A stretch of 28,229 nucleotides of DNA from a virus (IMGVR_UViG_3300030329_003526:1-28229); one strand, 5' to 3'; shown: positions 6,047 through 28,066, counted from the stretch's first letter. Translations and numbers: made by a program. The notes: generated from the letters alone by a model not told the origin.

Positions 6047-7450
6047 ATGGGAAGAAAATATGGCGATATATATGTAGACACTTCTACAATGGGTACTATA
6101 GATAGAGTTCAAAATATATTATCTCAAGCACAACGAATGAGACATGCTGAATCTAATCAGCAATTTATGGAAGATACTAGGAATCAATTATTAGCTGCAG
6201 AAAATGCTTTAAATAAATGGAAATCGTATACAACAGATGATACTAGTATTTTCAATAAAGATATATCTAATCAGCAATTTAATTACCATACTGATTTAGA
6301 AACTGCCTGGGAGGGTTATAGAAAAGAAATGTTAGCAAATGGCATAACATATCCTGATAAAGAGGCTTTTACTAGAAAGTTTCATGATAATTTTACACAG
6401 AGAATAATGACTGTTGCAAGAAAGTTTAGAGCTCAAAGGGAACAAATTAGAGCTAAAACTGGAATAGAGGATAATGTGCTACTTAATAAATATATGCAAA
6501 AAAATCATAATGCAGATAATCTATACCTTCAGACTTCAAGTATTTTAGGAAATGATGAAGCTCAACAAATATTAGGATATTCTCCTCCTGTTAAAAGTAA
6601 AACTTGGAAAAAGTGGGCTCAAGATTTGCTTATGAAGCCTAGCTATACTGACCCAGAAACTGGCGAAACTATAGGTGGGGGTATGAGGGGAGTATTAGGC
6701 TTTACTATACCTGGTATGGCGTTAGGCGCATGGCAACAATATGGAGAATTTAGTAGGAATAAAGCAGATATTCTCAAAGAGGCAAAGGCTAATCAAAATA
6801 GACATAAGCAAACATTCCAAAAATATAAAAAAGGAAAAAATAAAGGCAAATTTAAATTAGATAAAAAAGGTAATAAAATTCCATTAGGTACTAAACCTGG
6901 TAGTGGTATATCAGCAGCTGAGTTTATGAAAAAATATAATTTAAGTAAATCAGAAGCATTCGGAGCTGATGGCAAGCCTACTAAAGAATTTAATAAGATA
7001 TTAAACCAAAAAACATTACCAGAAACTAAAACAGGAAAAGTCCTTCGAGCTGGAAGAAGAAACCTTAAATCTTTAGCAGGTTACGGTATAGGCTCAACTC
7101 TTGGAGGAGAATTAGGTGAATTAACTGGAAGCGAAGAAGCAGAATTTGTTGGTAGTGTAGGTGGGGGAATAGGTGGTGCTATTGGTATGAGAAAATTATG
7201 GAAAAAACTTCAAGACCCTAACACTATTAAGAGATTAAAAGCTGTAGCAGCAAAATCAGGTAAAAAAGGTGCAATTAATAAAATATTAGCAAAATTAGGA
7301 GTATCTGCGCTAGGTTATGTAGGTCCTCAGGCGATAGAGCCTTTTTCAACTGCAGTAGGAGCCGCAGGGACAGCATGGGCTATGTATGATATATATAAAA
7401 TAGCAAAAGAAGTTCCAGCACTTATGGATATTTTATCTGAAGGAGATTAA
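6047..7450 (+). CDS. Probable internal virion/ejection protein with C-terminal membrane-type helices
   Basis: 467 aa, RBS AAGGAG; C-terminal GSVGGGIGGAIG zipper and hydrophobic AVGAAGTAWAMYDIY; stop overlaps the start of the giant gene. Confidence 0.5.
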   Translation: MGRKYGDIYVDTSTMGTIDRVQNILSQAQRMRHAESNQQFMEDTRNQLLAAENALNKWKSYTTDDTSIFNKDISNQQFNYHTDLETAWEGYRKEMLANGITYPDKEAFTRKFHDNFTQRIMTVARKFRAQREQIRAKTGIEDNVLLNKYMQKNHNADNLYLQTSSILGNDEAQQILGYSPPVKSKTWKKWAQDLLMKPSYTDPETGETIGGGMRGVLGFTIPGMALGAWQQYGEFSRNKADILKEAKANQNRHKQTFQKYKKGKNKGKFKLDKKGNKIPLGTKPGSGISAAEFMKKYNLSKSEAFGADGKPTKEFNKILNQKTLPETKTGKVLRAGRRNLKSLAGYGIGSTLGGELGELTGSEEAEFVGSVGGGIGGAIGMRKLWKKLQDPNTIKRLKAVAAKSGKKGAINKILAKLGVSALGYVGPQAIEPFSTAVGAAGTAWAMYDIYKIAKEVPALMDILSEGD

Positions 7451-10400
7451 TGTCATTACCAACAAACTGGCAACCCAGTTATGATGAAGAGCGTACAAGA
7501 TACCTTGTTGATAGATATAAAGGACAATCACATCTTTTAGGTAAAGAGGGTGAGGCTGAGCTACAGCAACATGCTGAAGCTTATGGTATTCCTTTTTATA
7601 CAGGTGATTTTTCAATATTAGAAGCTATTAAGCAGGCTGGAGCAGGCTTTGTAGAAGGTTTTACTACTCTTAATATAGCTGACCACCCAGATAATGAATA
7701 TGAACAAATATTTCGCAACCTAGGACATTTGGCAGGTTTTGCACCTGGTATTATAGCAGGACCTGCTAAATTACTTCCAGCTAAGTGGATAGGGGCTCGT
7801 ACACTTGCAGCCTCTACAGCTAGATTAAAATCACTTCCGATGCTCGGTGCTGATGTTATAGAAAAATATAGCAAACAAGCTATTCGTTCTGCAGGTAAAG
7901 GTTTTGTAGGTAGAAGCGATGCTATGAAAACTACAAAAAACTTTTTACTTGGAGATAAAGCTAAACATATTATGCAAGGAGCTTTTCATTTAGGTACAGC
8001 ATCTGCTTTATCTTCATGGCAGGGTGGTGTAGACCAAATGTTAGAAGCTGCAAAAGGTGGTGCCGTAGCTGGGGGTGTTTTTAGAGCAATAGGAAACCTA
8101 AGCCCAGGTACCAGTGCACATGAAAGAATGGGAAAAGCTATGGCAGGCTCACTATTTATGGGCTTACCAGCTACAATGAGAGGAGCTACTACCCCTGAGC
8201 AAGTTTATGAATATGTAATGGGTGCTTATTTTGGAGGAAATGAAGTATCTTGGACTAGAGCTAAAGCTGGTAAATTTGTTAAAGGAATGCAGAAATGGGC
8301 TACTGATAAAAATACTAGGCAAGATGCTATTAAATCAGGAATGGACCCTGAGTTTCATCCTAAATTTGATGCATTACCTGAACAGGTCAAACCTCTTGTA
8401 AAAGAAGAAGCTGCAAAAGCATTTAATCCTCCTGAAGTAAATATAGCTAATAATATGGCTTATGAATTAGCTACTAAACTAGGACTAACTGGCCATTTAA
8501 AAGAAGCTGAATTAATAGCTGAAGGCGCTAAACCTACTGGTGAATACAGAGATGGTGAAGCAGTATATAGGTTTAATGAATCTCTTATAGCTGAAAAATT
8601 TAAAACATTTCAAACATCTGGTGGAACAAGAGGTGATAATGTATTTGCTAAAGAAGCAGATAAAGTTGGCATACCTACTGTGCATTATGGGTTTGGACAG
8701 AAAGGAAGACGAAGTAAAGCAACTGGTTTTCATAGAATATTAGATGCAGCTGAACTGCAGGAAGCAGAAGTACAACTTAAAAAAGCTGAAACTGTACTAA
8801 AAAGAGCTTCTAAAAAGGAAAGTGAAGATGTTAGAAACTTACGTCGTTCTAATTGGTATAAAGTAAAATGGGCAGATTCAGTATATGTTATTGGTAATTT
8901 TCAAAAAGGAAGACATCAATTAGCTGGAATGCCTGGTATTGCTGCTCAAATGGCTATTAATAATGGTAAAAAGGTATTTGCTTTTAGTCAAAAAGATGGT
9001 AGATGGTTTGAATGGAGAGGTGCAGCTCGTGGGGGAAAAGGCACTTTTATAGAAGCAGGTAAACCTCCTAGACCTACTATGAGATTTGCAGGAATTGCTG
9101 ATGATAAAATATCCCATAAAGGAAAACAGGCGATTAAGACGCTTTTTTCTGAAAACTATGTTCAAGTACCATCAGTAACAGAAAGTGTCTCTAAAGGGCG
9201 AAAATCGAAGAAATTAGAGCAAAAGGTGTCAGCCTTAAGGGATGAGTTAGATGTTACCCAAGAATTATATAATGAAAAAAAGGATGATATTTTACTTAAA
9301 AAGGCAGCAGGTCAAGATACTACTGTTGAAGAAGTTGAACTGGCTCAAATAGCTCAAGAAAGTAAAAGTCTAGCTGAAAGACATAATAGGTTAGTTAATT
9401 TTGGACTTGCTACTAGAACCATTACTCCTGAAGTTAAAAATAAAGAAGGAATATCAAACGAGATATCCGATATATCTGATGTTGATTTTGAAGGTCCTGT
9501 TAATTTAGAGGTTGGAAAGGTTCCTCTGCAATTTACTTCAAAGCATTTAGATAAAGTATGGTCTGGGGATATTGATGTATTACAACAACAGAATGTTAAA
9601 CGGGAACTATCTCAGCTGGTTGAACAAACCTTGCTAAAAACTGAAGATGGTACACCCATAACTCAAGGAGGTAATCCACTCTATTTAAGGCCTGGCTCTA
9701 AAGAGAATTTATCTGAGAGATGGGCAGATGCTGTAGAAAGAGAAATAAAAGACACGTATGATAGCGAATTTACATTAACTAAAGAAGCTAGACGTGACAT
9801 GCGTAAATGGATGACTAGAAAGAATCTTGGAAGAATAGTTACTCATTTACAATCTGATGGTAAAACAATCAGAATGATGGAAAATCCTAATGCACCTATT
9901 ACTTTAGCTGGAAATAGAAAACATCAGGAAGAACCTTTAAAGCGTATTGAAGAAGCATATATGGAAGCAGGAGGTCAATCTCCTGCAATAGAGCCTATTT
10001 ATATGGTTCTTGACCACGTTACTATTGAAGGTAAAAGAGGTAGAAGGGATTTAGATATATCCGATTATAGAAATAAGAATCCTGAAGAATTTAAATCAAT
10101 GATGACTACTGCTATGGTAGACATGGGTAAAAGAGGATATTATCCTTTAGGTGGTAAAGGTGATTCTGACAGGATTATATGGGCAAAACATCATCCTCAA
10201 ACAAATACATTGACTGAAAGTCAGATAAAATCTACTTTATCAAAATTTAAATTAGGTAAAGGTAGAGATGTAGATGAGAATTACAATTTATCTGAAAAAG
10301 AGTTTAATAAAATGGTATTATCTAATGTTTATTATGACTTACAGATGAATGGTATGCAGATTAATGATGCTAATATTAAGACATTATTAACACATCCTGG

Positions 10401-13400
10401 TTTCATTAAAGATTCAGCAGCTTTTAACAAAAGACAACAAATATGGATGAATAATGCTTGGTCTGGTGATGTTGAATTTATTAAAAAACAGGGTATTAAG
10501 TTAAATGATGCGGATAATTATAATTATCTAATAGTAAAGGATTTGTCAGATATTGATGCAAAACTTGATTCTAAAGTGTCGAATTTAAAAAATAGTCAAT
10601 TACCTGAAAATGTTGATGGTGCAATTATAGTCTCTGATAAGGTTCTTAATGCTATTAATGCTGATTTTGGTAATCCTCCATCTGGTCAAAATAAATCATT
10701 TATTGTTTCACCTAATATTCAAAAAGGAGCTTTATTAGGTAAATATATGATGCATGCAGCAGGACCTAAAATGAGTAAAGCGATGGATGCTAAAGGTGTT
10801 CATATGATTATGCAGGAATCTGCTGTAAAGCAAAGAGGATTGCGTAAAGTAAATGATTATTCTATTGAAAAAGGTGAATTAAAATTTACTGGCTTTATGT
10901 ATAATGATTTATCACCTGAGCATATTAAAGGTAATTTTGGTGTATATGGTAATGAGCACTTTATTCAAAATCAACGTATTCCTAAACAGCTATTACAAGC
11001 TTTATTACCTTCTGCGTGGAATCCTGTTAAACCTGAAGTAATAGATGATGCTTTTAAAAGTATTATTAGAGAAAGATGGCAAGGTAAAACTGAAGTTAAT
11101 AATCAAGTTAGAGAATATCTGGATAAAATTAAAACAACAGATATTTCTCAAGCAGAACTTTTAAGGCTTGAAAAAGAAATTATAAATAGAATAGAAGATA
11201 TTGGCGTAATGGAATTGGTTGATGCCATGAAAAGTGAACATGCTCCTAATCTGAATGAAGCTATTTATAATAAAATATTAAAATTAGATAAAAACAATTC
11301 AATAGAAGATTTAATTGAAAAGAATGCTAATCCTGCTGAATATGATGCTTATAATAATACATTAACTGAATTCAATTCTATTGTTGATAGAGTATTATTA
11401 AATGCGAATGAATGGGCTAGTTCACAAAGAAGGAATGGTATTGATGCAAATGTAACATCAGTTTATATGCATAAATTTGTTAGAGATTTTCGTATTAAGG
11501 CTGTTCAAAATTTTATCATTAATTCAGCAACTAAACCTAAGCGTGATAATTCTGCTGTTGGGTTTATGCGGCCATATGATAAGGCTATGAGATTAAATCT
11601 AGATGGAGCTAATCCTAGGTTAAAAGAATTAGAAAAGAATGATGAAATCTTCTTTTTAGATAATGCTTTTAAAGAATTATATGTAAAACTAGACATGCCT
11701 GGTAAACCTAATTTAAAAGGAATGAAACTTGAAGCTTTATGGAATAGGTATGAAAAAACAAAATCTAAAAAAGAAAAAGAATATATAGAAGATGTATTTG
11801 AAGCTATATCAGTTCGTGTTCCAATGGATTCAATGTCTGGTGCACAGATTTTAAAATTTGCTGGTTTTACTGGAAGAGAAGGTCATGGTATATTAATGCA
11901 TGGACGTTCCATGAGAGCTCAAGGCGGTGCTGATTTAGACGGAGATAAGTCTTTCGTCTTTTTTGGTGGTAGAGGAGGAATGAAAAAGGAATGGAAAGAT
12001 GCTTATAAAAATAATAAAAAGGAATTCTATTATACAGAAAAAGGTATAGAAAAAATTGGTGACAATAAAGGTTCTATTAATCCTTTTACAAATAAACCTT
12101 ATAGAGAAGAATTAGCTATAAGCCTTAGTAAAGAAGAACGTGCATTTTATACTTCTAAAGAAGCACAATATTCTCCATTAGAAAGATTAAGAATATCTAA
12201 TGCAGCTGTTGATGGTCGTAATCAACTTGGACCTGCTGTTGTAGCTAAACAGGTAATGTCGGCAGCATATAATGCTATTGAAGCTAATGGTGGTACAGAT
12301 TATTTAACCATTAGAATGAAAACTGGTAAAAAAACTAAAAAAGGTAAACCAGAATATGGTCTTTATAGATTAGAATTAAACTTAAAAAATGATAAAAAAT
12401 CTAAAGAACATCAAAGGAATCTAGGTAGAGCTCAAATAGGTTTAGCTTCTGACCCTTTAGATGAACTTGGATTGAGAGGTAATGATGCTTGGTTTAAATC
12501 TATGTGGCAAGCTCATTTTAATATTAAAGATGTTAAAAGAATGAACCCTAAAACTAACAAATTTAATTTAAAGGTTGATAAAACGTTTATTAATAAAAAT
12601 TTAACGGCTGAAGATTTAACTTCTAATAATTTAAGAAAAGGTGTTTATGGTAGTTTAATGAAGATAAATCAAGCTTATTGGGGTAAGAATTGGGCTGAAG
12701 GTAGAAAATTCTCCATGGAAGAGATACTTGATAAAGGAGAAGCTATTAGGGGACTTTCAGATGCTAGTATTGATGCTAGTTTTTTAGGTAGAACAGGTCA
12801 ATTATTAAGAGGTTTAGATTGGTCTGATTCGGTTTTTGGTAAAATAGAACATAAAAATTTAGATAAAGCTTATGCAGAACATAATGCTAGATTATCTAAA
12901 TACGATGGTTTAAAAAATATATTAGGTAGAAGTACTTTTAGAGTTGTTCCTGGTAATATTGTTAATAATGTAATGAATCCAAAATATTCCTTATGGACTG
13001 CAGAAGGTGTTGTCAATACAGCTTCTAATTTAACTGATTTTCAACGAGTTATTAAAGGAACTAAATATCACCATCAGGTACATAGAAATTTATCAGATTA
13101 TTTTAATGTAGAAAAGAAGAAGATTAAAAATGCTGGACATGATAAACATTTTAATGCTCGCAGAGATTTACTTATTGAAATGAGGAAGGAAGCAGAAGAT
13201 TTTGTAATTAATGACATGACTGATATAGCTACAATTATGGAGGTTTCTAGGATATATGAGGATATGGTCAATAATAAAGATAAAGGATATATACAACTTG
13301 AAAATGTTAAGGAAAAACAATTAAATATAAATCAGGTTGTTGAGATGATTCATAAAAAGGTGGAATCTTTAAAACGTAATTCTTATTTAATGGCTAGAGA

Positions 13401-16400
13401 TAGGGGTAAAATGAAGAGTTATGAAGCTCTTATTGATAAGGTCGATGTAGAATCTAATCCTGGTAGAAAGTTAGTTAAACTTTTAGAAGCGGAACTTGGT
13501 ATTGGTAGAAAAGTAAGGACTGTTGGTGAAGATAGAACTGCAGAATTAGACCAAATGCAAATTGACAATAAAATTATTGAATTTAAACAAAAACTTACTC
13601 CAAGAGGTCAGAAATTATTTGACCATTTAATGCTAGGCTCTTTGAATAGAGGAGAGATTAATGCTATTAATGAATTTGAAAATAGTGTTACAAAATGGGA
13701 CTCGATGACAAGGGATGTAATTAAAGGATTAAGAAAAGCTGCTGCAAGAACTTCAATTTCTAGGTTAGGATTTAATAGTAATGCTATACCTGATGTATCG
13801 ATTAAAGAACATATTGGAGCATTTGCTAATAATTTTAAACAAACATATAGACCCTTAAGTAAAGAACAATCTAAAATAGTTAGCTCTGAAGTTGAAAATT
13901 ATAAAACGAGAATAGAAACTTTAGATACAGGTTTAGTTGAAGCTTTAACTCCTTCAGGATATCAAGGATTAAAAGCAGGTAAACTTGATGCTGAAAGTAA
14001 GAAAATTGTTACTGAAATAGCTGATTTAATGGCTGATTTACCTAATTATCAAAAAGAATTATTACCATACATTGTGCGTAATCCTGAGATAATAGGAAAA
14101 GATTTGAACGCAATGAATAAACAGGATTTTCTGGTTTTAAGAAATTATCTTAATAGTTTAAAAGGTGGTACATGGTTGCAAAGAATGTTTTCAAAACCAG
14201 GGCCAGTAGAATTAAGTAAAAGGCATCATGCACTGTTTCCTAAAACTGTTAATAGAGAACTAATGAGAGATGATTTAGTAATGATGAAGGAAAAAGGTTT
14301 CTTTATTGATGGTACTGGACTCCCTAGAGTTGGTCAAATAGTTAAACCTACCCATTATGTAGATATTGTTCAAAATTTTATAGCTAAAATGAATGGTTCT
14401 GCTGTAAATGTATCTGATAAATATATAAAACAATTTAATGAATCAATGTTATTTCATAGTGGTTTAGAGGATAGTGCTGGTTTATGGGAAATAGCTATAC
14501 GTAAAAGAGAAGCCTCTGAACATGCTATTAAAGTTATATCTGATAAATATAAAGCAAATAAAACTAGTCGTGAAGCAGCTATTAATGAACGAAGACTTCA
14601 ATTGGGTAAAGCTGAACGAGAATATGATTGGGCAAATAAAAAAAATAAAGAATATACAGTTACAGTTGATGGTGTACGTCAAACTTTAACAGGTACAGAA
14701 ATTGTTAATCGTATTAATACTGAATTAACAGGATTATTTAAAGAGATGATGACTTTTATTCATGGTAAAGAAGGTGCTTTAGATGCTTATCAATATGATA
14801 CTTGGGAATTAGGTCAACGTGTAAAAAGATATGATTATAAAACTTTTATGAAAGATTTACAGAATCATATTGCTGGAAATACTCCTAAAGGTTGGATTAA
14901 GGAAGGTATTGCTGATGTACCATCTTACTTTGGTGTTGATGGGTTAAGATTAATGGCTCGTGAAATGCAATTAGATATGATTAAAGACCCTGAGGTTAGA
15001 TTTAAAATAATGCAACAACCTGCTACTGAATTTATTACAGGCAATCTAGGAGAATCTTATTTCCCTCATATGTTTTTTGATAAAGTAACATCTAAAAAGC
15101 TTATGAATGATGCTATGAAAAAGATATTAGAAACTCCTGAATCACAAATGACTGAAGAACAAAAAAGAACTGAAATTAGAAAATTATATTATAAGAATAA
15201 ATCTCTTGGTGGTGAAATGCGTTTTCAAGATTTAGAACAATGGGATTTAGTTTATGATGTTCTTGATGATATTGCACAAAATAAAAAAGTATCTAATGAA
15301 AAGATTAAATGGTTTAATGCAAATGAACGTTCTGGTTCAATGAAAACTAGAGAAGTTAATATGGGAGGTTATAGTACAGACCCTGCTGTAATTGAATCAT
15401 ATGTAAGGTCATTATCTAACACTTATCATAGACAATTATCTCAAATGTTTGGAAGATGGTCTATTGATAAAATGTACGGTCAAATGAGAGGTAAATGGGG
15501 GCAAGAACAAACTACTGCATGGCAGAATTTTATGCGTTTATTTGTTCAAGATGCAATAGGTAATCCTTCGATTATACCTGAAAGATTATATGAAGACCCT
15601 AAAATGAAGATTAAAGGAACTCCTTATGGTTGGTGGGCTGATAATAGGGTAAAGAAAAGATTAAATAAAATAGGTGAATCTCTTGGTATTGTTGATAAAA
15701 AATTACCTGAACAACTAAGAGGTGTAGATGAGGAAACTTTACGTCATTGGTCTAATTTAGAGGCACAATATGAAATGGCTACATTATTAGCACATCCAAA
15801 ATCAATGGTTGCTAATATTTTTGGAGGTACTTCACATACAATACAATCAGCAGGTTGGGGTAATTTTGTTAAAGCTAGAACTCCTAATTTTTTAGCTAAA
15901 ATTAATCCTAATTGGAAAACAATGAAAGATGTAGATGATTTTGTTGTAGCTCAAGGTGTTCTTCCTGAATACCTGGTGTATGAAATGGGTTTACAAAAAG
16001 AATTCCAAAATACTAAAGGAAAAGGTTTTTTAGCAGATTTAACATCTAAATTAGCTAGAGACCCTGAAATGTCTGAACAATCCATAACTGATTTAGCAGG
16101 TAAATACGGTTTAAAAGATAAAGTAATGAACTTTGCTTCTAAATTTATGTCCGTTCCTGAAAGAATGTTACGTAGAGATGCCTTTATGGCACATTATGTA
16201 CATGCTTGGGAAAAGTTTGGTGGTGCTATTAAAGAGTATGACCATCCATTTTTAATAGAAATGGCTAAAAAAGGTGTAAAAGCTACTCAATTTTTATATA
16301 ATGCTCCTTTTAGACCTGCTTTTGCTCGTACTGCATTAGGTAAGATAATGACTAGGTTTCAATTATGGGGATGGAATTCAGTTAGATTTAGAAATGATGT

Positions 16401-16914
16401 TCATAGGCAAGCTAAAATATATGGTTTTACACCAGGTACTGAAGCCTGGAAACGATATGAAAGAACAATGCAAACAGATTTATTTGTTTTTGCTCTTGCT
16501 AATGTATTTGCATATTCATTATTTGAAAGTAATCTTCCTCAACCATGGGGTTGGATACAAGATTATTCAGATTGGATATTTGGTGATGAAGGTGATAGAG
16601 ATAAAGCGTTTTATGGGGCTTGGCCAAAGCAAGTTGCTCCTCTTCAAATGGTAACTCCTCCCGGCTTGCGTTTGGTCGGCCCCACTTTTAACGCTATGCT
16701 AAACGATGATTGGTCTAAGGTTAGTCAATATTATGCATATACAATGCTTCCATTTGGAAGAATGATACGTGATGTAAATCCTTATGCTAAAGGTAACTTG
16801 ATAGAGAATCCAATGCGTTTACCAGAAAAGTTATTTGGGCTTCCTGTAATGCAATTACAAAGAAATATAACTGAATGGAAAGAAGAAAAGCCTGAAAAAT
16901 TATATCCAGGCTAA
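7450..16914 (+). CDS. Giant virion protein with single-chain two-barrel RNA polymerase (putative virion RNAP) and N-terminal SLOG-like domain
   Basis: 3154 aa. Ordered motifs NVDGAIIVS (D1056), LLGKYMM, MQESAVK, RVPMD (R1456) and GGADLDGDKSFVFF (D1495-D1497-D1499, nt 11932-11946) parallel the DG / KG / RPSxxK / RxP / GxDxDGD motifs of QDE-1-like and crAss-like polymerases. Confidence 0.8.
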   Translation: MSLPTNWQPSYDEERTRYLVDRYKGQSHLLGKEGEAELQQHAEAYGIPFYTGDFSILEAIKQAGAGFVEGFTTLNIADHPDNEYEQIFRNLGHLAGFAPGIIAGPAKLLPAKWIGARTLAASTARLKSLPMLGADVIEKYSKQAIRSAGKGFVGRSDAMKTTKNFLLGDKAKHIMQGAFHLGTASALSSWQGGVDQMLEAAKGGAVAGGVFRAIGNLSPGTSAHERMGKAMAGSLFMGLPATMRGATTPEQVYEYVMGAYFGGNEVSWTRAKAGKFVKGMQKWATDKNTRQDAIKSGMDPEFHPKFDALPEQVKPLVKEEAAKAFNPPEVNIANNMAYELATKLGLTGHLKEAELIAEGAKPTGEYRDGEAVYRFNESLIAEKFKTFQTSGGTRGDNVFAKEADKVGIPTVHYGFGQKGRRSKATGFHRILDAAELQEAEVQLKKAETVLKRASKKESEDVRNLRRSNWYKVKWADSVYVIGNFQKGRHQLAGMPGIAAQMAINNGKKVFAFSQKDGRWFEWRGAARGGKGTFIEAGKPPRPTMRFAGIADDKISHKGKQAIKTLFSENYVQVPSVTESVSKGRKSKKLEQKVSALRDELDVTQELYNEKKDDILLKKAAGQDTTVEEVELAQIAQESKSLAERHNRLVNFGLATRTITPEVKNKEGISNEISDISDVDFEGPVNLEVGKVPLQFTSKHLDKVWSGDIDVLQQQNVKRELSQLVEQTLLKTEDGTPITQGGNPLYLRPGSKENLSERWADAVEREIKDTYDSEFTLTKEARRDMRKWMTRKNLGRIVTHLQSDGKTIRMMENPNAPITLAGNRKHQEEPLKRIEEAYMEAGGQSPAIEPIYMVLDHVTIEGKRGRRDLDISDYRNKNPEEFKSMMTTAMVDMGKRGYYPLGGKGDSDRIIWAKHHPQTNTLTESQIKSTLSKFKLGKGRDVDENYNLSEKEFNKMVLSNVYYDLQMNGMQINDANIKTLLTHPGFIKDSAAFNKRQQIWMNNAWSGDVEFIKKQGIKLNDADNYNYLIVKDLSDIDAKLDSKVSNLKNSQLPENVDGAIIVSDKVLNAINADFGNPPSGQNKSFIVSPNIQKGALLGKYMMHAAGPKMSKAMDAKGVHMIMQESAVKQRGLRKVNDYSIEKGELKFTGFMYNDLSPEHIKGNFGVYGNEHFIQNQRIPKQLLQALLPSAWNPVKPEVIDDAFKSIIRERWQGKTEVNNQVREYLDKIKTTDISQAELLRLEKEIINRIEDIGVMELVDAMKSEHAPNLNEAIYNKILKLDKNNSIEDLIEKNANPAEYDAYNNTLTEFNSIVDRVLLNANEWASSQRRNGIDANVTSVYMHKFVRDFRIKAVQNFIINSATKPKRDNSAVGFMRPYDKAMRLNLDGANPRLKELEKNDEIFFLDNAFKELYVKLDMPGKPNLKGMKLEALWNRYEKTKSKKEKEYIEDVFEAISVRVPMDSMSGAQILKFAGFTGREGHGILMHGRSMRAQGGADLDGDKSFVFFGGRGGMKKEWKDAYKNNKKEFYYTEKGIEKIGDNKGSINPFTNKPYREELAISLSKEERAFYTSKEAQYSPLERLRISNAAVDGRNQLGPAVVAKQVMSAAYNAIEANGGTDYLTIRMKTGKKTKKGKPEYGLYRLELNLKNDKKSKEHQRNLGRAQIGLASDPLDELGLRGNDAWFKSMWQAHFNIKDVKRMNPKTNKFNLKVDKTFINKNLTAEDLTSNNLRKGVYGSLMKINQAYWGKNWAEGRKFSMEEILDKGEAIRGLSDASIDASFLGRTGQLLRGLDWSDSVFGKIEHKNLDKAYAEHNARLSKYDGLKNILGRSTFRVVPGNIVNNVMNPKYSLWTAEGVVNTASNLTDFQRVIKGTKYHHQVHRNLSDYFNVEKKKIKNAGHDKHFNARRDLLIEMRKEAEDFVINDMTDIATIMEVSRIYEDMVNNKDKGYIQLENVKEKQLNINQVVEMIHKKVESLKRNSYLMARDRGKMKSYEALIDKVDVESNPGRKLVKLLEAELGIGRKVRTVGEDRTAELDQMQIDNKIIEFKQKLTPRGQKLFDHLMLGSLNRGEINAINEFENSVTKWDSMTRDVIKGLRKAAARTSISRLGFNSNAIPDVSIKEHIGAFANNFKQTYRPLSKEQSKIVSSEVENYKTRIETLDTGLVEALTPSGYQGLKAGKLDAESKKIVTEIADLMADLPNYQKELLPYIVRNPEIIGKDLNAMNKQDFLVLRNYLNSLKGGTWLQRMFSKPGPVELSKRHHALFPKTVNRELMRDDLVMMKEKGFFIDGTGLPRVGQIVKPTHYVDIVQNFIAKMNGSAVNVSDKYIKQFNESMLFHSGLEDSAGLWEIAIRKREASEHAIKVISDKYKANKTSREAAINERRLQLGKAEREYDWANKKNKEYTVTVDGVRQTLTGTEIVNRINTELTGLFKEMMTFIHGKEGALDAYQYDTWELGQRVKRYDYKTFMKDLQNHIAGNTPKGWIKEGIADVPSYFGVDGLRLMAREMQLDMIKDPEVRFKIMQQPATEFITGNLGESYFPHMFFDKVTSKKLMNDAMKKILETPESQMTEEQKRTEIRKLYYKNKSLGGEMRFQDLEQWDLVYDVLDDIAQNKKVSNEKIKWFNANERSGSMKTREVNMGGYSTDPAVIESYVRSLSNTYHRQLSQMFGRWSIDKMYGQMRGKWGQEQTTAWQNFMRLFVQDAIGNPSIIPERLYEDPKMKIKGTPYGWWADNRVKKRLNKIGESLGIVDKKLPEQLRGVDEETLRHWSNLEAQYEMATLLAHPKSMVANIFGGTSHTIQSAGWGNFVKARTPNFLAKINPNWKTMKDVDDFVVAQGVLPEYLVYEMGLQKEFQNTKGKGFLADLTSKLARDPEMSEQSITDLAGKYGLKDKVMNFASKFMSVPERMLRRDAFMAHYVHAWEKFGGAIKEYDHPFLIEMAKKGVKATQFLYNAPFRPAFARTALGKIMTRFQLWGWNSVRFRNDVHRQAKIYGFTPGTEAWKRYERTMQTDLFVFALANVFAYSLFESNLPQPWGWIQDYSDWIFGDEGDRDKAFYGAWPKQVAPLQMVTPPGLRLVGPTFNAMLNDDWSKVSQYYAYTMLPFGRMIRDVNPYAKGNLIENPMRLPEKLFGLPVMQLQRNITEWKEEKPEKLYPG

Positions 16915-20663: not shown

Positions 20664-20876
20664 TTAAGAGTAACCTTTTTCAGTTATTGTTATCTCTATG
20701 GATGGTTTCCATGCTAATGAAATTACTAATTCAAGCCTATAAATACCAAGTAAAATAGATTTGTATGGACCGAATCCATCGTCTCCTCTAAGAACTCCGA
20801 ATTTAAATAACGAGAATAATGTAATTATAAAGCCATTTTCTAACTGTTGTAAGTTAAAGATATAACCTTTATTCAT
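20664..20876 (-). CDS. Hypothetical protein
   Basis: 70 aa, AAGGAG RBS, overlaps the primase-helicase stop. Confidence 0.6.
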   Translation of the reverse strand: MNKGYIFNLQQLENGFIITLFSLFKFGVLRGDDGFGPYKSILLGIYRLELVISLAWKPSIEITITEKGYS

Positions 20877-22650
20877 GTGTTTCAGTTCTCCTTAATCTAA
20901 AACTAGGATGCCATTCTAACTCTGTTTTAAATAATTCACCATCAGTGTTTTTAAACAGATTGATTTCTTTTATTGTATCTTCAGGTTGGCCATTTATTCC
21001 CAGTACTTTTCTACTAGCATTTTCTATTGCTCCAGAACCTTTACCTGCGTAAAGGTCAAGAACTTCATTTCTACTATAATCACGAGCTACTTGAGATATT
21101 TGGATAATAATAAGGTCATAATTAACTGCCATATTTGATAGATTGTGTGATATATATTTAATTTGTTCGTACTCTCCTTTTATATGTGGAGGTGTTTCTA
21201 TTAAATCAATATAATCTACAATCACTACAGCAGGATTTAATTCTCGAATTTTATCTTTAATTTGTTCAATAGTAGGTGACACAGTTTGAACTGATATGTG
21301 TCCTAATTCATCTTTATGTTTTTTAAAGATAGTTTTGTATTTAGCATTTGCCCTTTCTTTTGAACAGTTGGCTACAATTTGCATATGCCTTCTATGCATA
21401 TACCAAGCTGATAACTCTAAAGAAATAAATAAAGTAGGGATTTGCCATTCTTTAACTATTTTATTATTAACAAAATCAAAGCCTAATGCAATATTTTGTG
21501 CTAGTGTTGTTTTATTAGAACCAGTAGGTCCAAAGATTGTTACTAGTTCACCAGGATAGATAGTTGTATCTATATGTGGAGGTAATCCAAGCATTTTACT
21601 TAATTCAATGCATCTACCACTAAAGTCAGCAGTTAATCTTGATTCTAATTCTTCTTGTAATGTATGAGAAGTCTTAACATCGATTAAAAAGTCTTTACGT
21701 TTAAAGTAAATACATTTAGTTTGACAATGTTCTTCCATGAATTTGTCTTTACATGAATACTGATAGCCTTTATTATATGTTTGTTCTATATTATTTATAA
21801 GAACCTTTTCGTCTAAGCTATTGTTATTCCAATGCAATAATGAAACTTTAGCAAATTCACTAGGAATGCCATTTCTTCTAAAATAGCTTGCTATTCTCAT
21901 TGATATATTATGCCTTGAACCACTTTGAGGCCCTAGATTTAACATACGTTGAACACAAGGAACTACTTTAGTATTTTCATTAACAGGTCTTAACTCTGCT
22001 ATCCTGGGTGTTTTAGTATTTACAGCTGTTTCTAATTCACCTTCTCCTATTAAACCACTGTAAATAAATTCTAAACGTGGAGTTTTTGCCATTTCTAGAA
22101 TTTCTTCACATTTTTTAGTCATAACTTCTTGACAAGTTAGTGGTATTTTATATAGTCCTGTTTTCTGATTTTTAGTATGAGGTACACGATATATAGCTGT
22201 TCTTATATATACCATATCATCAATTCCAGAAAGCAACTCTGTCATAGTTTGTCGAACTATAAAAGGTAATTCAGGAGATGGTTCAAAATTAAATACAGAA
22301 TTTGGTATCATTAAATGATATCCAGAACCACTAAAGAAGGGTTGTACAGATTTATTAGGATTTAATCCATATTCTTCCAGCGTTAGAATATATCCAACTG
22401 TCCTTCTTAATGTTTCTTCATTAGAATTATCCCCTTTATCGATGTCAATTAAGATTTTATCAATCCATCTTGGCCCATGAAAGTTTTTAATCGAACCTTC
22501 CTTTTCAACTAGTAACTTTGCATCATCATTATATAAATATAATGAACGATAAAGGGGTTTTTCTAAATTAATGTAAGAAGCTAAGTCTTTCCGATTAATT
22601 ATGTGTCCACGATTCCTCGGAGTATCTATAGCAATCTCTACATATTTCAC
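20869..22650 (-). CDS. Primase-helicase fusion (AEP/Prim-Pol N-terminus, PriCT-like linker, DnaB/RecA-like helicase)
   Basis: AEP motifs IDID, FSGSGYH, RVPHTKN; GSRHN plus a Cys cluster; helicase motifs GPTGSNKTT, FISLEL, VIVDYID, ISQVAR, GSGAIE. Confidence 0.85.
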   Translation of the reverse strand: MKYVEIAIDTPRNRGHIINRKDLASYINLEKPLYRSLYLYNDDAKLLVEKEGSIKNFHGPRWIDKILIDIDKGDNSNEETLRRTVGYILTLEEYGLNPNKSVQPFFSGSGYHLMIPNSVFNFEPSPELPFIVRQTMTELLSGIDDMVYIRTAIYRVPHTKNQKTGLYKIPLTCQEVMTKKCEEILEMAKTPRLEFIYSGLIGEGELETAVNTKTPRIAELRPVNENTKVVPCVQRMLNLGPQSGSRHNISMRIASYFRRNGIPSEFAKVSLLHWNNNSLDEKVLINNIEQTYNKGYQYSCKDKFMEEHCQTKCIYFKRKDFLIDVKTSHTLQEELESRLTADFSGRCIELSKMLGLPPHIDTTIYPGELVTIFGPTGSNKTTLAQNIALGFDFVNNKIVKEWQIPTLFISLELSAWYMHRRHMQIVANCSKERANAKYKTIFKKHKDELGHISVQTVSPTIEQIKDKIRELNPAVVIVDYIDLIETPPHIKGEYEQIKYISHNLSNMAVNYDLIIIQISQVARDYSRNEVLDLYAGKGSGAIENASRKVLGINGQPEDTIKEINLFKNTDGELFKTELEWHPSFRLRRTETHE

Positions 22651-23262: not shown

Positions 23263-23928
23263 TTAACTCTCCTTTACATAGATTTTTTTCCAATCAAATG
23301 GAAAGATTTTACCTTTAAGATGTTCACAGCGACTACCTGCTTCTAAAGCTACTCCTGATTGAAATGAAACCATTAGCTTATCATCTTCATCTCTAAACAT
23401 ATAACCAATAGCATCAGCTTGAGCCATTAATTGATTCTTTAGTTTACCTGATAAGTCTAATGATTCAGGTTCAACAGCAGTTGAATTATCTACAGCAGCA
23501 GCTGTCTTTCTGTGTCCAACAATAATCGTTTTTGAACATAAACTTTGAAGCTTCTTGATATTATTTAATACGCGTTCTCTAACCATTCCAAAACCTTTAC
23601 CATAAGGTAAATCTGCAATGTCTTCAACGCCCATTTCTCTGCATACATCTTTAGATGTCCATTCAACTAGTTTGTCGATTGTGTCAAGTGCAAAGATATT
23701 ATAATCATGACCTTCTGATGCCTCCTTGTAAAAAGAAAGCAATTCCTCTTTACTGTTTACTCCATGGAAATAACCCTCGAGCATATGGGACCCAGATTCG
23801 GTGTCAATAACTAAGCAATCTGAAAGTTTACTTAACATAGTAGTTTTACCGACCTTAGGTGCCCCATATAACAAGAGTATTTTTGGATTAACAGAGATAG
23901 GTTTACGCTTGGCTTTTTTTAATGCCAT
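23263..23928 (-). CDS. AAA_24 / Sak4-like phage P-loop ATPase (recombination/annealing)
   Basis: LLLYGAPKVGKTT Walker A, IDTESGS, ALDTID Walker B, PYGKGF, ADAIGY, EAGSR. Confidence 0.85.
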   Translation of the reverse strand: MALKKAKRKPISVNPKILLLYGAPKVGKTTMLSKLSDCLVIDTESGSHMLEGYFHGVNSKEELLSFYKEASEGHDYNIFALDTIDKLVEWTSKDVCREMGVEDIADLPYGKGFGMVRERVLNNIKKLQSLCSKTIIVGHRKTAAAVDNSTAVEPESLDLSGKLKNQLMAQADAIGYMFRDEDDKLMVSFQSGVALEAGSRCEHLKGKIFPFDWKKIYVKES

Positions 23929-23979: not shown

Positions 23980-24636
23980 TTATTTGGAATGACCAAAGAT
24001 TAAATTAGGCAATGCAGTAATAAATCTTTTAGGAAATTCTTCTCCTATTAAGAGTTGTTTAACTGCAAGCGAAATGAAACCTCCTGCCATATTAGAACAG
24101 TAGGATGTCGCCTTGGCGTTACAAGGGTCCTCCGAAGCATCTGCATCTGAATACCAGGTATCTTTATATTCTTTAAGAGTTGGATTCTTCAACACATACT
24201 GTTGGTACTCCTCCGCCCCCATTCGTCCATCTATAAGGACAAATGGTCTGTTACGCTTAGTCAGCGCTGCAGTCGCGGCTTCAAGACGACTATCCATACT
24301 GTCGAAGCCCAAGATTACAATGTCGTCTTCGCTGAGAGGCTTGACGAATGCCGAGAACCGCCCTGGTTCTATGGTAACATTGACTCTTGGGTTTATTGCT
24401 TTTAAATGCTTACTTAAAGCATCAACTTTAGTTTTACCAATATCTTTATAAATATAATGAGAAACACCTATATTTTGTATTTCTACACTATCTAAATCGT
24501 ATAAAACAAAGTGTTCAACTCCCATCCTGCAGAGTTGTGTGGATGCAGAGCTACCTATAGCCCCGCATCCTAATATGTGAAAGATTTTATTACCAAAATC
24601 TTCTATTAAACCTCTACTTCTTTCATTAATTTCCAT
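23980..24636 (-). CDS. ThiF/E1-like ubiquitin-activating enzyme
   Basis: ERSR Arg finger, ILGCGAIGS nucleotide-binding loop, YDLDSVEIQNI, KVDAL, INP, GFDS, IDGRMG, candidate catalytic Cys in DPCNAK; start revised to MEINERS after AAGGA. Confidence 0.9.
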   Translation of the reverse strand: MEINERSRGLIEDFGNKIFHILGCGAIGSSASTQLCRMGVEHFVLYDLDSVEIQNIGVSHYIYKDIGKTKVDALSKHLKAINPRVNVTIEPGRFSAFVKPLSEDDIVILGFDSMDSRLEAATAALTKRNRPFVLIDGRMGAEEYQQYVLKNPTLKEYKDTWYSDADASEDPCNAKATSYCSNMAGGFISLAVKQLLIGEEFPKRFITALPNLIFGHSK

Positions 24637-25579
24637 AATGGTCCTTTCTAACATTAGACGTTTGAAGAGTTGCTTGTACAACTGGTTGAATATTTTCTAG
24701 AACATCTTCAGGGGCAACATATATTTCATGTTTCCAACTAGATAATTCTCCTCTAGTAAATTCAGGTATTTCAAGATTGTATTTCTTTATACCCTTATTT
24801 AATTCAGAAAACATTCTATTTATTTCCTTACATTGCTTTTTAGATATATTATTAGGAACTTTATCTATAACTTTTGTTATATATTCATATAATTTATCTA
24901 TTTCACTATCAGGAACTAAACTTACATCAACTTCCTCTTCATCATCATAGAAACTATTATAAGAACCTATACCATAGGATTTATTATAATGGTCAACCTC
25001 TTTATTTTGCTGTGCTGCCCAGAGGTTAGATTGTTTACCATTATATCCATAGGTAGTTACAACAGTTCTTTCAGGTTTATTACAAAGCTCAATAACTTCT
25101 TTGTTAATACTTTCTGGAACTTCTTGTCCGATGATATTTAACTTTACATCTTTATCTAATTCAATAGGTTTGAAATATTGTACTCTTAATTTATATTCTC
25201 TATTAAGATTAACAACCAATGATAAAGAAAAGTCATTTGTCTTTTGACTTAAGATTGTATCAACGTCAGTTCCTGACCAAAATGCTTGCATTGTATGATG
25301 ACTGTGCCACCAGCAATGTCTAACTTTATTGCCATATTTCTTATATAATTTATCATAATATATAGCTAGTTCTGTAGCATCTAAATCACAAGTACCATTA
25401 CTTACTTCCTGTTTTAATATAACAGGTTCAATCAGTTTAAATTGCCCATCTTCTTCTATTACAGTCAATTGTCCACCTATTTCTGCTTTTAATTGAGTAT
25501 AAGCTGATTGAGCATAATGAATGATTTTATTCCAATCTTTAATTGATATATGGAATATATCATCTTTTTCTTCTTTCAT
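24626..25579 (-). CDS. JAB/JAMM (MPN+) metallopeptidase, deubiquitinase-like
   Basis: AEIGG catalytic Glu; WWHSHHTMQAFWSGTD fits HxH-x7-S-x2-D; SLVVN; long acidic C-terminal extension; start revised to MKEEKDD. Confidence 0.9.
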   Translation of the reverse strand: MKEEKDDIFHISIKDWNKIIHYAQSAYTQLKAEIGGQLTVIEEDGQFKLIEPVILKQEVSNGTCDLDATELAIYYDKLYKKYGNKVRHCWWHSHHTMQAFWSGTDVDTILSQKTNDFSLSLVVNLNREYKLRVQYFKPIELDKDVKLNIIGQEVPESINKEVIELCNKPERTVVTTYGYNGKQSNLWAAQQNKEVDHYNKSYGIGSYNSFYDDEEEVDVSLVPDSEIDKLYEYITKVIDKVPNNISKKQCKEINRMFSELNKGIKKYNLEIPEFTRGELSSWKHEIYVAPEDVLENIQPVVQATLQTSNVRKDHYGN

Positions 25580-25590
25580 ACATTTCCTTT

Positions 25591-27489
25591 CTAATTGCAA
25601 TAACAATTTTTATTTATTATTAACTTAGCAAAGCCTATAGGATTAATACTTTCGGTACTACCTGCTTCCATCAATGTAATGCCAGCTATATGTACTATCT
25701 CATTCATATTAGCTTTGTTTGTCATTCTAAAAGCATAATCCCTATTACTTTCATCATGAGTCTTCTTAATAGGTTTAGAACTTGCATAATCCATCCAACG
25801 TCCTTCATTATGAAGCATTATTAAATCAGTAAAATGTATTCTTTTTGCTATTTTAAATAATAAAATAGCTAATTCTACTACATCATCCCAATTGTCAGAA
25901 TCATAAATACCACCTCTTATTCTATCTATTAAATCACAAAATACAGAAACAAATGAAGTAAGTGAAACAATATTACCATTAGTTATCCTGCCTTGAAGAT
26001 TTAAAACATATTTTAATTTGCTTTCCATAGTTCCTCTATTAACACAATTCCACATTTGATAAATAATACATTCAACAGCTGTTTGTATATCATCCATCTC
26101 TGATTCATTAAGTGCAAATACAGGGTCAATAATTTGCTGTGCGATTTCTTCTGTTATACCTTCAGGAAGATTCTTCTCTATATAAGATATTTCATCATAT
26201 ACACCACAATCTTGCACTAATTGACAATTTGTACAATATTTATTTACGAAAAGCTCATAATCATCAAATCCTTCATCTATTACTCTTCTACAAGTACTTT
26301 TAGATGTAGCTAATAAGGCTTTTAAGTTATCATCCCAATCAAGAGGCATGCCAATATGATGTGTTTGTGGCTGATTTAAAGGCGTTGTGTTGCCTAACCT
26401 GTATGTTTTAGCCCAAATATTAAGAAGTGTCTTTAAATGGCTAAAATTGGCCGTTAAAAGAGCAATCATGATATCATCATCTAAATCACCAAAGCATATA
26501 TTACCTCTATTATATGAATTATAACGAAGGTTACCATCTCTATGTACAAAAGGGTGTTTTAATCCATTAACATGTGGAAATACAATACCATGATTAGCAA
26601 TACGCCTTAAATTTAAGTTGCGAAACAATTCATGCGCATCTCTATTGGCTGGAAATGATTGAATTCTTTTATAATTTACTATCATGTCATATATAGTCAT
26701 GCTAAAATTTACAATCATATCTCCAAATGGAAGTGTGACTAATGTCTCATACCTATTTTTCTTAAATGTAGAATATTCAATATTGATATCCTTTAATGCA
26801 ATACTAATGTTAATCCACCATCTTTTTGGGTCAATATTTGTACCATACACTCTAAGCGCTTCAGGTGTCGTAATTTCACCAATCCTATTAATCCATAACC
26901 TGTTTTCATTGAATTTAATATTGTTTATATCCTCAAATATTGGGTGTATTGGCATGTCCCAAGTTGGTTCAAAGACAGGTATTCTTCCTGCATTATATTG
27001 CCTTGTTCTTCTAGCAGCCTCATCACTACGTTTATGATTTGTAGTGTAATATGGTAATGGAAGTATATTAATCTCCATATCATCATATTCTTTTAATAAT
27101 AAAGGTGTTATTTCACTTAAAGCTAATTGACCTTGTTTTTTAGTATATTCTTCATCTAAACTAGCCTTTTGAGCTCTAAATTCCTTCAATTGTGCATCAA
27201 TTTTATGCATATCTTCTACACAACTAGATAGGCCATATCTATCATAACGTGTTAATCTTTTAATAGTATTAGCACCTTTAGGTTTTTCCCAATGAGGGAA
27301 TAATGAGCGTACTATTTGACCTTTTAATCTTTCATATGAACCTGGTCTCCAACGAGCATTTTCATTAAATTCTAATTTAATACCATATCTTTCCGTAAAA
27401 CGCTCTACTTGTCTTAAAAATGGTTCAACATTTGATAATCTTTTAGTATCAATGTTAGGCATTGATTTAAAGTTTATTCTTTCTTGCAT
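25591..27489 (-). CDS. Large prokaryotic E2 (UBC-fold)-like conjugating enzyme with Cys-rich Zn module
   Basis: KHPFVH...RGNICFGD matches the E2 HPxV...GxIC signature (Cys codon 26494-26496); followed by C-x19-CTNC-x5-C; lies between Ubl and JAB; start revised to MQERIN after GGAG. Confidence 0.7.
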   Translation of the reverse strand: MQERINFKSMPNIDTKRLSNVEPFLRQVERFTERYGIKLEFNENARWRPGSYERLKGQIVRSLFPHWEKPKGANTIKRLTRYDRYGLSSCVEDMHKIDAQLKEFRAQKASLDEEYTKKQGQLALSEITPLLLKEYDDMEINILPLPYYTTNHKRSDEAARRTRQYNAGRIPVFEPTWDMPIHPIFEDINNIKFNENRLWINRIGEITTPEALRVYGTNIDPKRWWINISIALKDINIEYSTFKKNRYETLVTLPFGDMIVNFSMTIYDMIVNYKRIQSFPANRDAHELFRNLNLRRIANHGIVFPHVNGLKHPFVHRDGNLRYNSYNRGNICFGDLDDDIMIALLTANFSHLKTLLNIWAKTYRLGNTTPLNQPQTHHIGMPLDWDDNLKALLATSKSTCRRVIDEGFDDYELFVNKYCTNCQLVQDCGVYDEISYIEKNLPEGITEEIAQQIIDPVFALNESEMDDIQTAVECIIYQMWNCVNRGTMESKLKYVLNLQGRITNGNIVSLTSFVSVFCDLIDRIRGGIYDSDNWDDVVELAILLFKIAKRIHFTDLIMLHNEGRWMDYASSKPIKKTHDESNRDYAFRMTNKANMNEIVHIAGITLMEAGSTESINPIGFAKLIINKNCYCN

Positions 27490-27506
27490 TTTTATCTCCA
27501 AAGTAT

Positions 27507-27705
27507 TCAAGGAGAGGCAGGAACCACTTGCACTGAGTTGCGTTGGGTCAGAAACCTCTCCTTGACGTCTTAATAAAATAACATTTCGTATCAGTGATTT
27601 GTAAGAGTGGCCTGACTATCTACTCGACTTATGATTCGTCAATCATTTACGTTAGTTATTAGTGCTGCCTGTCTTTAAATGTAATACTATTAATCATTTT
27701 ATTAA
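27507..27705 (-). other. Two tandem long-stem RNA structures between Ubl and E2 genes
   Basis: Perfect 11-bp inverted repeat tcaaggagagg/cctctccttga (27507-27517 / 27555-27565); 13-bp stem with 2 GU (27570-27582 / 27693-27705) enclosing hairpin atgatt-gacg-aatcat (27631-27646). Confidence 0.6.
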
Positions 27706-27715
27706 TTCTGGTTAA

Positions 27716-28066
27716 TTACTTTATAAAAGGTGTATTAAGAAGTTGATTAATAATGCCACCTTTCTTGTTACCATCTACGTAACTTACTCTACTACCTGTT
27801 TCATTTTCCATATCCCATCTACCATCTGCATCTTTTACCATTGATTCTACTGGTGTTGAGTCATGAGCTGGAACTCCATCAACAATAATATCACCTGATG
27901 GTAAATCTAAACCACTAACACCTGTTTCAGCTGTTGGTTTACGCAAATCAGCTACAGTTAGTGTTTGTGATTCATGTTTTACAATTGCAACGGCTGGTGT
28001 AATGCCATTTCTTATATATTTAATTGCACTTTCGTACAATGTTGGTCCTGCAACGACGTCTGTCAT
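27716..28066 (-). CDS. Ubiquitin-like (beta-grasp) protein precursor with KKGG and 12-aa C-terminal extension
   Basis: TVADLR helix start, IIVDG strand, DSTPV, GSRVSYV last strand, then NKKGG-IINQLLNTPFIK; first gene of the E2-JAB-E1 cluster; RBS AGGT. Confidence 0.75.
   Translation of the reverse strand: MTDVVAGPTLYESAIKYIRNGITPAVAIVKHESQTLTVADLRKPTAETGVSGLDLPSGDIIVDGVPAHDSTPVESMVKDADGRWDMENETGSRVSYVDGNKKGGIINQLLNTPFIK

Follow-up and report, generated by a model that had tools for sequence, protein, structure and literature searches.

Does a phage carry its own ubiquitin-like conjugation pathway? The question is raised by the 28,229-nucleotide window analysed here, i.e., the complete linear IMG/VR virus record IMGVR_UViG_3300030329_003526 (estimated to be 55% complete), and in particular by four adjacent genes at positions 23980..28066, which a first-pass annotation had described as a complete operon for a ubiquitin-like protein (Ubl), an E2-like conjugating protein, a JAB peptidase and an E1 adenylyltransferase. 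The four co-oriented open reading frames (ORFs) were borne out, all on the minus strand (Table 1), as were the 11-nucleotide gap between the E2-like and JAB genes and the 11-nucleotide overlap between JAB and E1, both of which are exact. The catalytic signatures quoted at that stage could all be located (KKGG in the Ubl, H312-P-F-V...G-N-I-C332 in the E2-like protein, the JAMM motif in JAB, and G23-C-G-A-I-G28 and D-P-C172 in E1), and the cassette does sit beside phage recombination and replication genes, with the E1 stop codon 51 nucleotides before the start of a Sak4-like gene.

Judged from sequence comparison, the cassette is real, conserved and virus-restricted, and we think it probable that its four genes form a self-contained Ubl conjugation pathway. 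A phage-owned set for the maturation, activation and transfer of a Ubl is the reading that best fits the motifs, the gene order, their conservation, the viral context and the predicted fold of the Ubl, and it is favoured because all four catalytic signatures are kept, well in excess of chance, while the rest of the proteins diverge.

Catalytic signatures of the four proteins

The 116-residue protein passed the check for a beta-grasp fold in its predicted structure, with bacterial multi-ubiquitin structures among the top fold matches and ThiS/MoaD as the closest sequence matches. Its KKGG motif is internal, since the reactive pair G103-G104 (27760-27755) is followed by a 12-residue tail, IINQLLNTPFIK, which is predicted to be removed. 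The GG pair is invariant in all 64 aligned Ubls; a variable tail follows it in 51 of 54 distinct sequences, GG being terminal in the other 3, and the metagenome Ubls divide likewise into those with a tail (20/27) and those ending in GG (7/27). Because the GG usually carries a short variable tail, trimming by JAB is likely to be needed. Some Ubls are fused in frame to tails of 60-117 amino acids, of three unrelated kinds (L008 637-1191, L086 2288-2878 and L070 728-1111), which recall ubiquitin-ribosomal protein fusions and from which JAB cleavage would free a second protein. These long C-terminal extensions (n=3) had no convincing stand-alone homologue among the collected loci and gave no clue to a target.

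The E1 is a clear member of the Pfam ThiF family (E 1.4e-21, 77 bits against a cut-off of 28). Its best NCBIfam scores also came from ThiF models, every model being under its cut-off, and sequence matches in the PDB were to MccB, UBA6, UBA5 and ThiF. Residues R6, D47, N55, K70 and D112 are invariant, and GxGxxG lies at 23-28. All 71 distinct E1s have the GCGAIG-type loop, the IDGR motif and the P-C-x-x-K cysteine, and none has either the CxxC zinc site or NxxRQ; the latter, whose arginine is part of the E1 nucleotide pocket, is replaced by N-[IV]-G-V-S. A further 80 metagenome E1 loci gave nearly the same picture, with the Cys motif in 79 and NxxRQ in 2. A second invariant cysteine, C180, is lost in the homologues of crAss-like phages, whereas C172 is kept there, making C172 the candidate catalytic residue.

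The E2-like protein begins with a helical hairpin (residues ~13-110), followed by what appears to be a divergent UBC-type core with insertions (~113-375) that holds H312, C332 (26496-26494), W359 and P370-L-N. Downstream lie a four-Cys cluster (C400, C419, C422 and C428) and a variable C-terminal part, and length across the family ranges from 420 to 720 amino acids. Among 141 aligned representatives of 50% clusters, the column of the putative catalytic Cys holds a cysteine in all 139 that have a residue there; the signature further comprises P in 135/138, H in 110/138 (otherwise F/Y) and a PLN-type motif, and the motif recurs in 36/36 metagenome loci. The order HPx...CxG...W...PLN is one that we take to correspond to that of E2s. 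As to the UBC fold that the E2 label implies, the models lend it modest support: the VIA rows covering the core were E2/RWD-type chains in 10 of 10 cases, while Foldseek searches of the PDB with both the Ubl and the E2 model returned nothing at E<=0.001. The E2 structures of Bil, Bub and Cap2 are absent among the 50 VIA rows listed, a search of the PDB with a hidden Markov model of the core gave 0 matches, and the Atlas offered a weak Prok-E2_D lead under its bar. In BFVD, six viral proteins matched the E2 model at E<=1e-11, and a protein from a crAss-like virus did so at E 3.7e-3. Neither the Ubl nor the E2-like protein of the window has a match in Pfam, PHROGs, NCBIfam or PADLOC. The description of the operon as complete is best taken to mean that no E3 was found, the four-Cys cluster being no RING by its sequence pattern.

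If the 632-residue protein were instead an unrelated Cys or zinc enzyme, the E1-Ubl-JAB trio would have to conjugate without an E2, in the style of SAMP or TtuB. That no E2 was matched significantly, either by sequence or by Foldseek against the PDB, fits this idea, as does a profile comparison with the crAss001 gp78 family that was not significant, but the ten VIA rows, the E2-like motif order and the sub-threshold Prok-E2_D lead all point the other way, and we find it hardly credible.

The JAB protein has the zinc motif E33, H92-S-H94-x7-S102-x2-D105 and a variable C-terminal extension. The JAMM motif is found in 69/69 distinct JABs, a count that is not independent because the loci were partly gathered using that motif. 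Family matches are weak (Prok-JAB in Pfam at E 0.006, under the cut-off, and the PADLOC JAB model at E 0.002), and the family profile matches Rpn11/CSN5 at E about 0.02.

The same proteins could be imagined as a sulfur carrier of the ThiS/ThiF kind, in which a thiocarboxylated Ubl would give sulfur to a host or phage pathway with the 632-residue protein as acceptor enzyme. The ThiS/MoaD matches of the Ubl and the NCBIfam ThiF scores of the E1 (all under cut-off) lean that way, and trimming by JAB is known in some sulfur-carrier clusters, according to passages of PMC1779556. However, the first-pass annotation had noted that no ThiG, MoaE or tRNA-thiolation gene is adjacent, and this was upheld: genes for ThiG, MoaE, rhodanese, desulfurase or thiouridylase were found neither among the 23 window ORFs (Pfam) nor among 95 ORFs (>=70 aa, E<=1e-4) of the relatives G001 and G003, which are 97-99% complete and in which most ORFs have no family, so that a divergent sulfur gene could escape the Pfam scan. 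To our knowledge, a dedicated Cys-bearing UBC-like protein plays no role in the ThiS/MoaD sulfur relay. With an E2-like partner in both signature and fold tendency, an E1 that lacks the CxxC zinc site of ThiF/MoeB, and no acceptor genes in the 95 ORFs, sulfur transfer is disfavoured, and we rate it as quite improbable.

Conservation and viral context

The window E1 alone found 44 viral loci; the JAB alignment against IMG/VR gave 322 confirmed of 387 pattern stretches, of which 80 were kept, and in metagenomes the E1 alignment was confirmed in 319 of the 600 stretches scanned, for an estimated total of about 1,300; 80 were again kept. The 185,579 prokaryote genomes yielded 5 matching stretches, one of which was confirmed. 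This sole confirmed match (L110) is a 3,859-nucleotide contig of a metagenome-assembled genome (MAG), CAYFGZ010000200.1 (uncultured Nisaea sp.), which holds only Ubl-E2-JAB-E1; it is probably a binned phage fragment and at most a weak host lead, being too small to trust as a prophage. The GenBank phage set held no close cultured member of the marine family, the best E1 match being at about 34% and JAB having 2 weak matches.

A survey of synteny confirmed the gene order, with Ubl-E2-JAB-E1 in 18 of the 19 E1-anchored metagenome loci that extend 4.5 kb or more upstream; only L190 departs from it, lacking a Ubl match. Overall the complete order is present in 66/106 loci, a count that includes re-fetched duplicate contigs, and the remainder show sub-orders, most of them where a contig or locus ends. 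In a few genomes, Ubl and E2 are separated by small ORFs. Five relatives are 97-100% complete (four of 50-56 kb and one of 85 kb). G001 and G003 carry a P22-like portal and an SU10-type capsid and adaptor, with a recognisable terminase in one of them, and the relatives are therefore tailed phages. Each cassette gene is single-copy in G001-G004 and the window. The recombinase downstream of the cassette is either Sak4 or ERF (ERF in G003), and the cassette stays in place despite this swap.

The suspicion that the contig is a chimera with a host insertion is contradicted by the GC content (0.321 for the cassette against 0.322 for the replication genes) and by the recurrence, across dozens of independent contigs, of this gene order beside the same replication genes; together with the virion genes of the relatives, synteny and GC content rule it out. 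The sequencing runs containing window DNA are marine metagenomes, with no RNA dataset among those listed. Two of these runs are possibly the source of the window; contig depth in such possible source runs is flat over the cassette, which we left uncounted as evidence.

Divergence within the cassette is uneven: identity to the closest contig is 96% for Sak4, 90% for E1, 64% for JAB, 46% for E2 and 45% for Ubl. This pattern would fit either diversifying pressure on an E2 that faces the target or an exchange of modules. The cassette is fixed and lies in the early/replication arm, away from the virion genes, while E2, Ubl and JAB diverge much faster than E1 and Sak4; this suggests that its function is a core one and that its target changes and is probably a host protein.

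The same observations bear on a role in counter-defence, in which JAB would strip host Ubl or CD-NTase conjugates and the Ubl and E1 would jam host E1 and E2, with no conjugation target of the phage's own. Passages of PMC11601596 describe this chemistry as an anti-phage weapon of the host systems Bil, Bub and CBASS, and E1 is slower to diverge than JAB, Ubl and E2, as such a role might have it. Yet the cassette is near-universal and fixed in the marine family rather than patchy, both catalytic cysteines are kept although a decoy would not need them, and the Ubl is unlike the BilA and Prok_Ub models. We therefore give a pure decoy little credence and retain the phage's own conjugation pathway.

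Two side observations concern the neighbourhood of the cassette in these loci. A ParB_N gene lies just upstream of Ubl in 8 loci, some of them re-fetched duplicates (e.g., L009 664-1380, L060 6900-7595 and L094 7355-8095); in the window, the view of this position is limited by the window end, which lies 163 nucleotides upstream of Ubl. In the replication arm of G003 there is a spore photoproduct lyase-family gene (L125 12866-13726; Pfam SPL, E 2e-22).

A related block in crAss-like and other cultured phages

The best GenBank phage matches of the E1 are to crAss-like and Flavobacterium phages (26-34%, 78 records). In crAss001, Fpv3, DAC15 and six other records, the ThiF gene closes a four-gene block, whose members in the three named phages are annotated only as hypothetical, metalloprotease or ThiF (thiamine biosynthesis). 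The block of crAss001, the Steigviridae and Fpv3 shares the order of the marine cassette and its placement inside the replication module. Its E1 and JAB are homologous to those of the window by hhalign (99.9% and 98.0%, respectively), and the signatures IDGR..E..Q and C-x-x-K-x-T are common to both. For the first two genes, at the Ubl and E2 positions, the hhalign comparisons are not significant (26% and 0.15%). The Ubl-like N-terminal domain in crAss-like phages ends in K-x-[KR]-S-G, with a long C-terminal part fused behind it, and the protein at the E2 position has H-S-H followed by an invariant C-x-G. On balance, sequence comparison makes the crAss block a likely sister system of the marine cassette, with a kinship that is clear for E1 and JAB and putative for the Ubl and E2.

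In cr106_1 (L111 1699-2902), an HNH endonuclease gene splits the first gene of the block right after KSG-K-F, at the predicted cleavage site, and marks the domain border. A fifth gene, gp75, has a conserved position after E1 in the crAss-type block and no Pfam match.

We found no description of such an operon in literature listings, a scope that leaves subscription papers and some supplements outside. A term search of the main text of PMC7886860 gave no occurrence of ubiquitin, ThiF or JAB, and one of its supplements carries the labels 'ThiF family' and 'MPN, metalloprotease'; the main text of PMC6235969 contains none of the terms searched. A UBA5-like gut-phage protein family is mentioned in passing in part of the preprint 10.64898/2026.03.05.709809.

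Surroundings of the cassette and the Ubl-E2 spacer

The plus strand of the window carries tail and lysis-type genes and a gene for a 3,154-residue protein, and the minus strand carries HNH, primase-helicase, a 204-residue protein of no known family, the Sak4-like annealase and then the four cassette genes (Table 1). Scans of the window DNA gave no tRNA or Rfam match, and a promoter/terminator scan was at chance level (27 hits vs 28.0 expected). The 3,154-residue protein (7450-16914, plus strand) has an R-x-P...D-x-D-x-D signature (GGADLDGD) near residues 1463-1499, kept in G001-G003 (GDYDID in G003), that presumably resembles the catalytic loop of two-barrel RNA polymerases. It may act as an RNA polymerase carried in the virion, like that of crAss-like phages. 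Neither the Atlas nor sequence searches of the PDB turned up a match for it.

Table 1. Positions of the cassette genes, their neighbours, the predicted RNA elements of the spacer and the corresponding blocks of cultured phages
Feature	Position	Strand	Description
Ubl	27716..28066	-	116 aa; beta-grasp domain 1-104 (predicted) and 12-aa tail
E2-like	25591..27489	-	632 aa counted from ATG
JAB/JAMM zinc peptidase	24626..25579	-	317 aa
E1/ThiF-type adenylyltransferase	23980..24636	-	218 aa; minimal
Sak4-like annealase/AAA ATPase	23263..23928	-	PHROG 124, E 9e-32; AAA_24 (Pfam)
204-aa protein	23261-22647	-	no family match; precedes the primase-helicase fusion
Primase-DnaB helicase fusion	20869..22650	-	PHROGs primase and DnaB helicase; Pfam DnaB_C
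Upstream stem-loop domain of spacer RNA	27570..27704	-	predicted by folding
12-bp hairpin	27507..27565	-	predicted; purine-rich 5' arm; ends 17 nt before E2 start
crAss001 gp79-gp78-gp77-gp76	L046 4247-8657		same four-gene order
Flavobacterium phage Fpv3 block	L047 4616-8627		same four-gene order
DAC15 block	L113 2194-6371		same four-gene order

The spacer between Ubl and E2 (27490-27715, minus strand; 226 nucleotides) is structured, folding as a whole at -58.8 kcal/mol with a z of -5.05 against 200 shuffles, and has no Rfam match. Of 41 distinct Ubl-E2 spacers, 30 have a stem of 9 bp or more just ahead of the E2 start, as opposed to 34 of 195 other spacers; such stems occur in 19/46 spacers after E1 and 1/23 before Ubl. 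Across 17 sequences the hairpin has two-sided changes at 8 of 10 pairs, and its counts of pairing and covariation exceed all 500 shuffles; a slide by +1 is nearly as good because the arms are purine and pyrimidine runs. The hairpin stands ahead of the E2 ribosome site, and hairpins resembling it precede other genes of the same phages. The hairpin is likely to be a general signal for mRNA processing or stabilisation in these phages, and it could set a high ratio of tag to enzyme.

Proposed pathway and its significance

All of the catalytic steps that we propose are drawn by analogy with Bil. JAB would trim the Ubl precursor to G104, and an E1 dimer would adenylate the Ubl and then hold it as a thioester on C172. 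The E2-like protein would accept the Ubl on C332 and pass it to lysines of target proteins without an E3; it would recognise the target directly by means of the helical hairpin, the Cys cluster and the variable tail. JAB would also reverse the tagging. We see about an even chance that the target is a host protein met early in infection; a phage transcription or replication protein seems a distinctly weaker candidate.

Alternatively, the same enzymes may serve a non-protein acceptor, with the E2 handing the tag to a lipid, a nucleotide, a DNA or RNA end or a small molecule. This would suit an E1 that is minimal and of homodimer type, with MccB and UBA5 among its best PDB sequence matches, an E2 with large unique insertions and a four-Cys cluster, and a cassette that adjoins DNA-handling genes. 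The scanned relatives contain no accompanying gene for such chemistry, however, and both the gene order and the trimming of a precursor fit Bil-type protein conjugation as portions of the Bil literature present it, so we judge a non-protein acceptor improbable and keep to protein tagging.

Somewhat more speculatively, the cassette could belong to a virus-specific Ubl branch, with an E2 family of its own, an E1 that has neither the zinc site nor the RQ arginine, and no E3, that has a core early function in marine and crAss-like phages and tags a host or phage transcription/replication protein for takeover. If this is true, phages would run ubiquitylation of bacteria as offence rather than defence. 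The characterised bacterial ubiquitination pathways (CBASS Cap2/Cap3, Bil and Bub) are host systems tied to anti-phage defence, in the account given in sections of PMC11601596, and a fixed, virus-restricted version in very common marine phages would hand this chemistry to the attacker. For finding the target, the homologous block of the cultured phages crAss001, DAC15 and Fpv3 offers a direct route. The crAss link would account for four genes that are conserved in dominant human-gut phages and labelled 'hypothetical', 'metalloprotease' and 'thiamine biosynthesis'; under the 'ThiF' label, the E1 risks being taken, probably wrongly, for an auxiliary metabolic gene.

Comparison with known ubiquitin-like systems

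The pairs ThiS-ThiF and MoaD-MoeB resemble the cassette in joining a small beta-grasp protein that bears Gly-Gly to a homodimer-type adenylyltransferase. The marine cassette differs in its E2-like partner, in an E1 without a zinc site and in having no sulfur source or acceptor nearby.

A further parallel is offered by PRTRC and Iyer-Burroughs-Aravind class 6d systems, where, in passages of PMC1779556 and in the NCBIfam entries TIGR03734-42, a stand-alone Ubl, an E2-like protein, a JAB and a ThiF-type E1 are found on mobile DNA; passages on phages in the former deal with the lambdoid tail Ubl-JAB pair. The ParB-like gene upstream of Ubl in 8 loci, duplicates included, and the weak Prok-E2_D lead in the Atlas may echo this set. 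Against the PRTRC ThiF and protein A models, however, the window E1 scored 23.4 bits vs a cut-off of 144.75, and JAB 11.9 vs 101.8. Neither Prok-E2_D nor Prok_Ub had a match among 54 E2 cores or 64 Ubls of the marine family, and the positive control, Bacillus phage Edson, matched both (Prok-E2_D at E 4e-10 and Prok_Ub at E 1e-27). The classical His before the Cys, absent from class 6d according to portions of PMC1779556, is kept in most marine E2s. Edson itself (L117 915-6937) harbors a PRTRC-type cassette in which a Prok_Ub repeated five times in tandem is accompanied by Prok-E2_D, JAB and ThiF; every one of them is annotated as hypothetical.

Bub systems (6E/DUF6527), as parts of PMC11601596 present them, likewise conjugate proteins with a bacterial Ubl, E1, E2 and JAB, but do so with Tyr/Ser oxyesters, gene fusions and a DUF6527 protease, whereas in the marine family C172 and C332 are invariant and the enzymes stand alone.

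Bil serves as the model for the proposed pathway. Sections of the preprint bioRxiv 10.1101/2023.09.26.559546 describe a Ubl-E2-DUB-E1 order like that of the cassette, a JAMM peptidase that trims residues past the reactive Gly (BilC acting on the precursor tail of BilA), Cys-based E1 and E2 enzymes and no E3. BilD, in the same sections, is an E1 of two domains (IAD-AAD) that also has a CYS domain and a zinc site of four cysteines, in contrast to the single-domain, 218-residue window E1 with no CxxC; the marine E2 is 420-720 amino acids long with extra domains, and neither it nor the Ubl has a PADLOC match. Bil is moreover a host-encoded anti-phage locus, whereas the marine cassette lies on viral contigs with terminase, portal and capsid genes. 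Although the cassette falls outside Bil, Bub and PRTRC by their family tests, our analysis suggests that it likely works like Bil; its chemistry is of a known kind, of which the phage family carries a variant.

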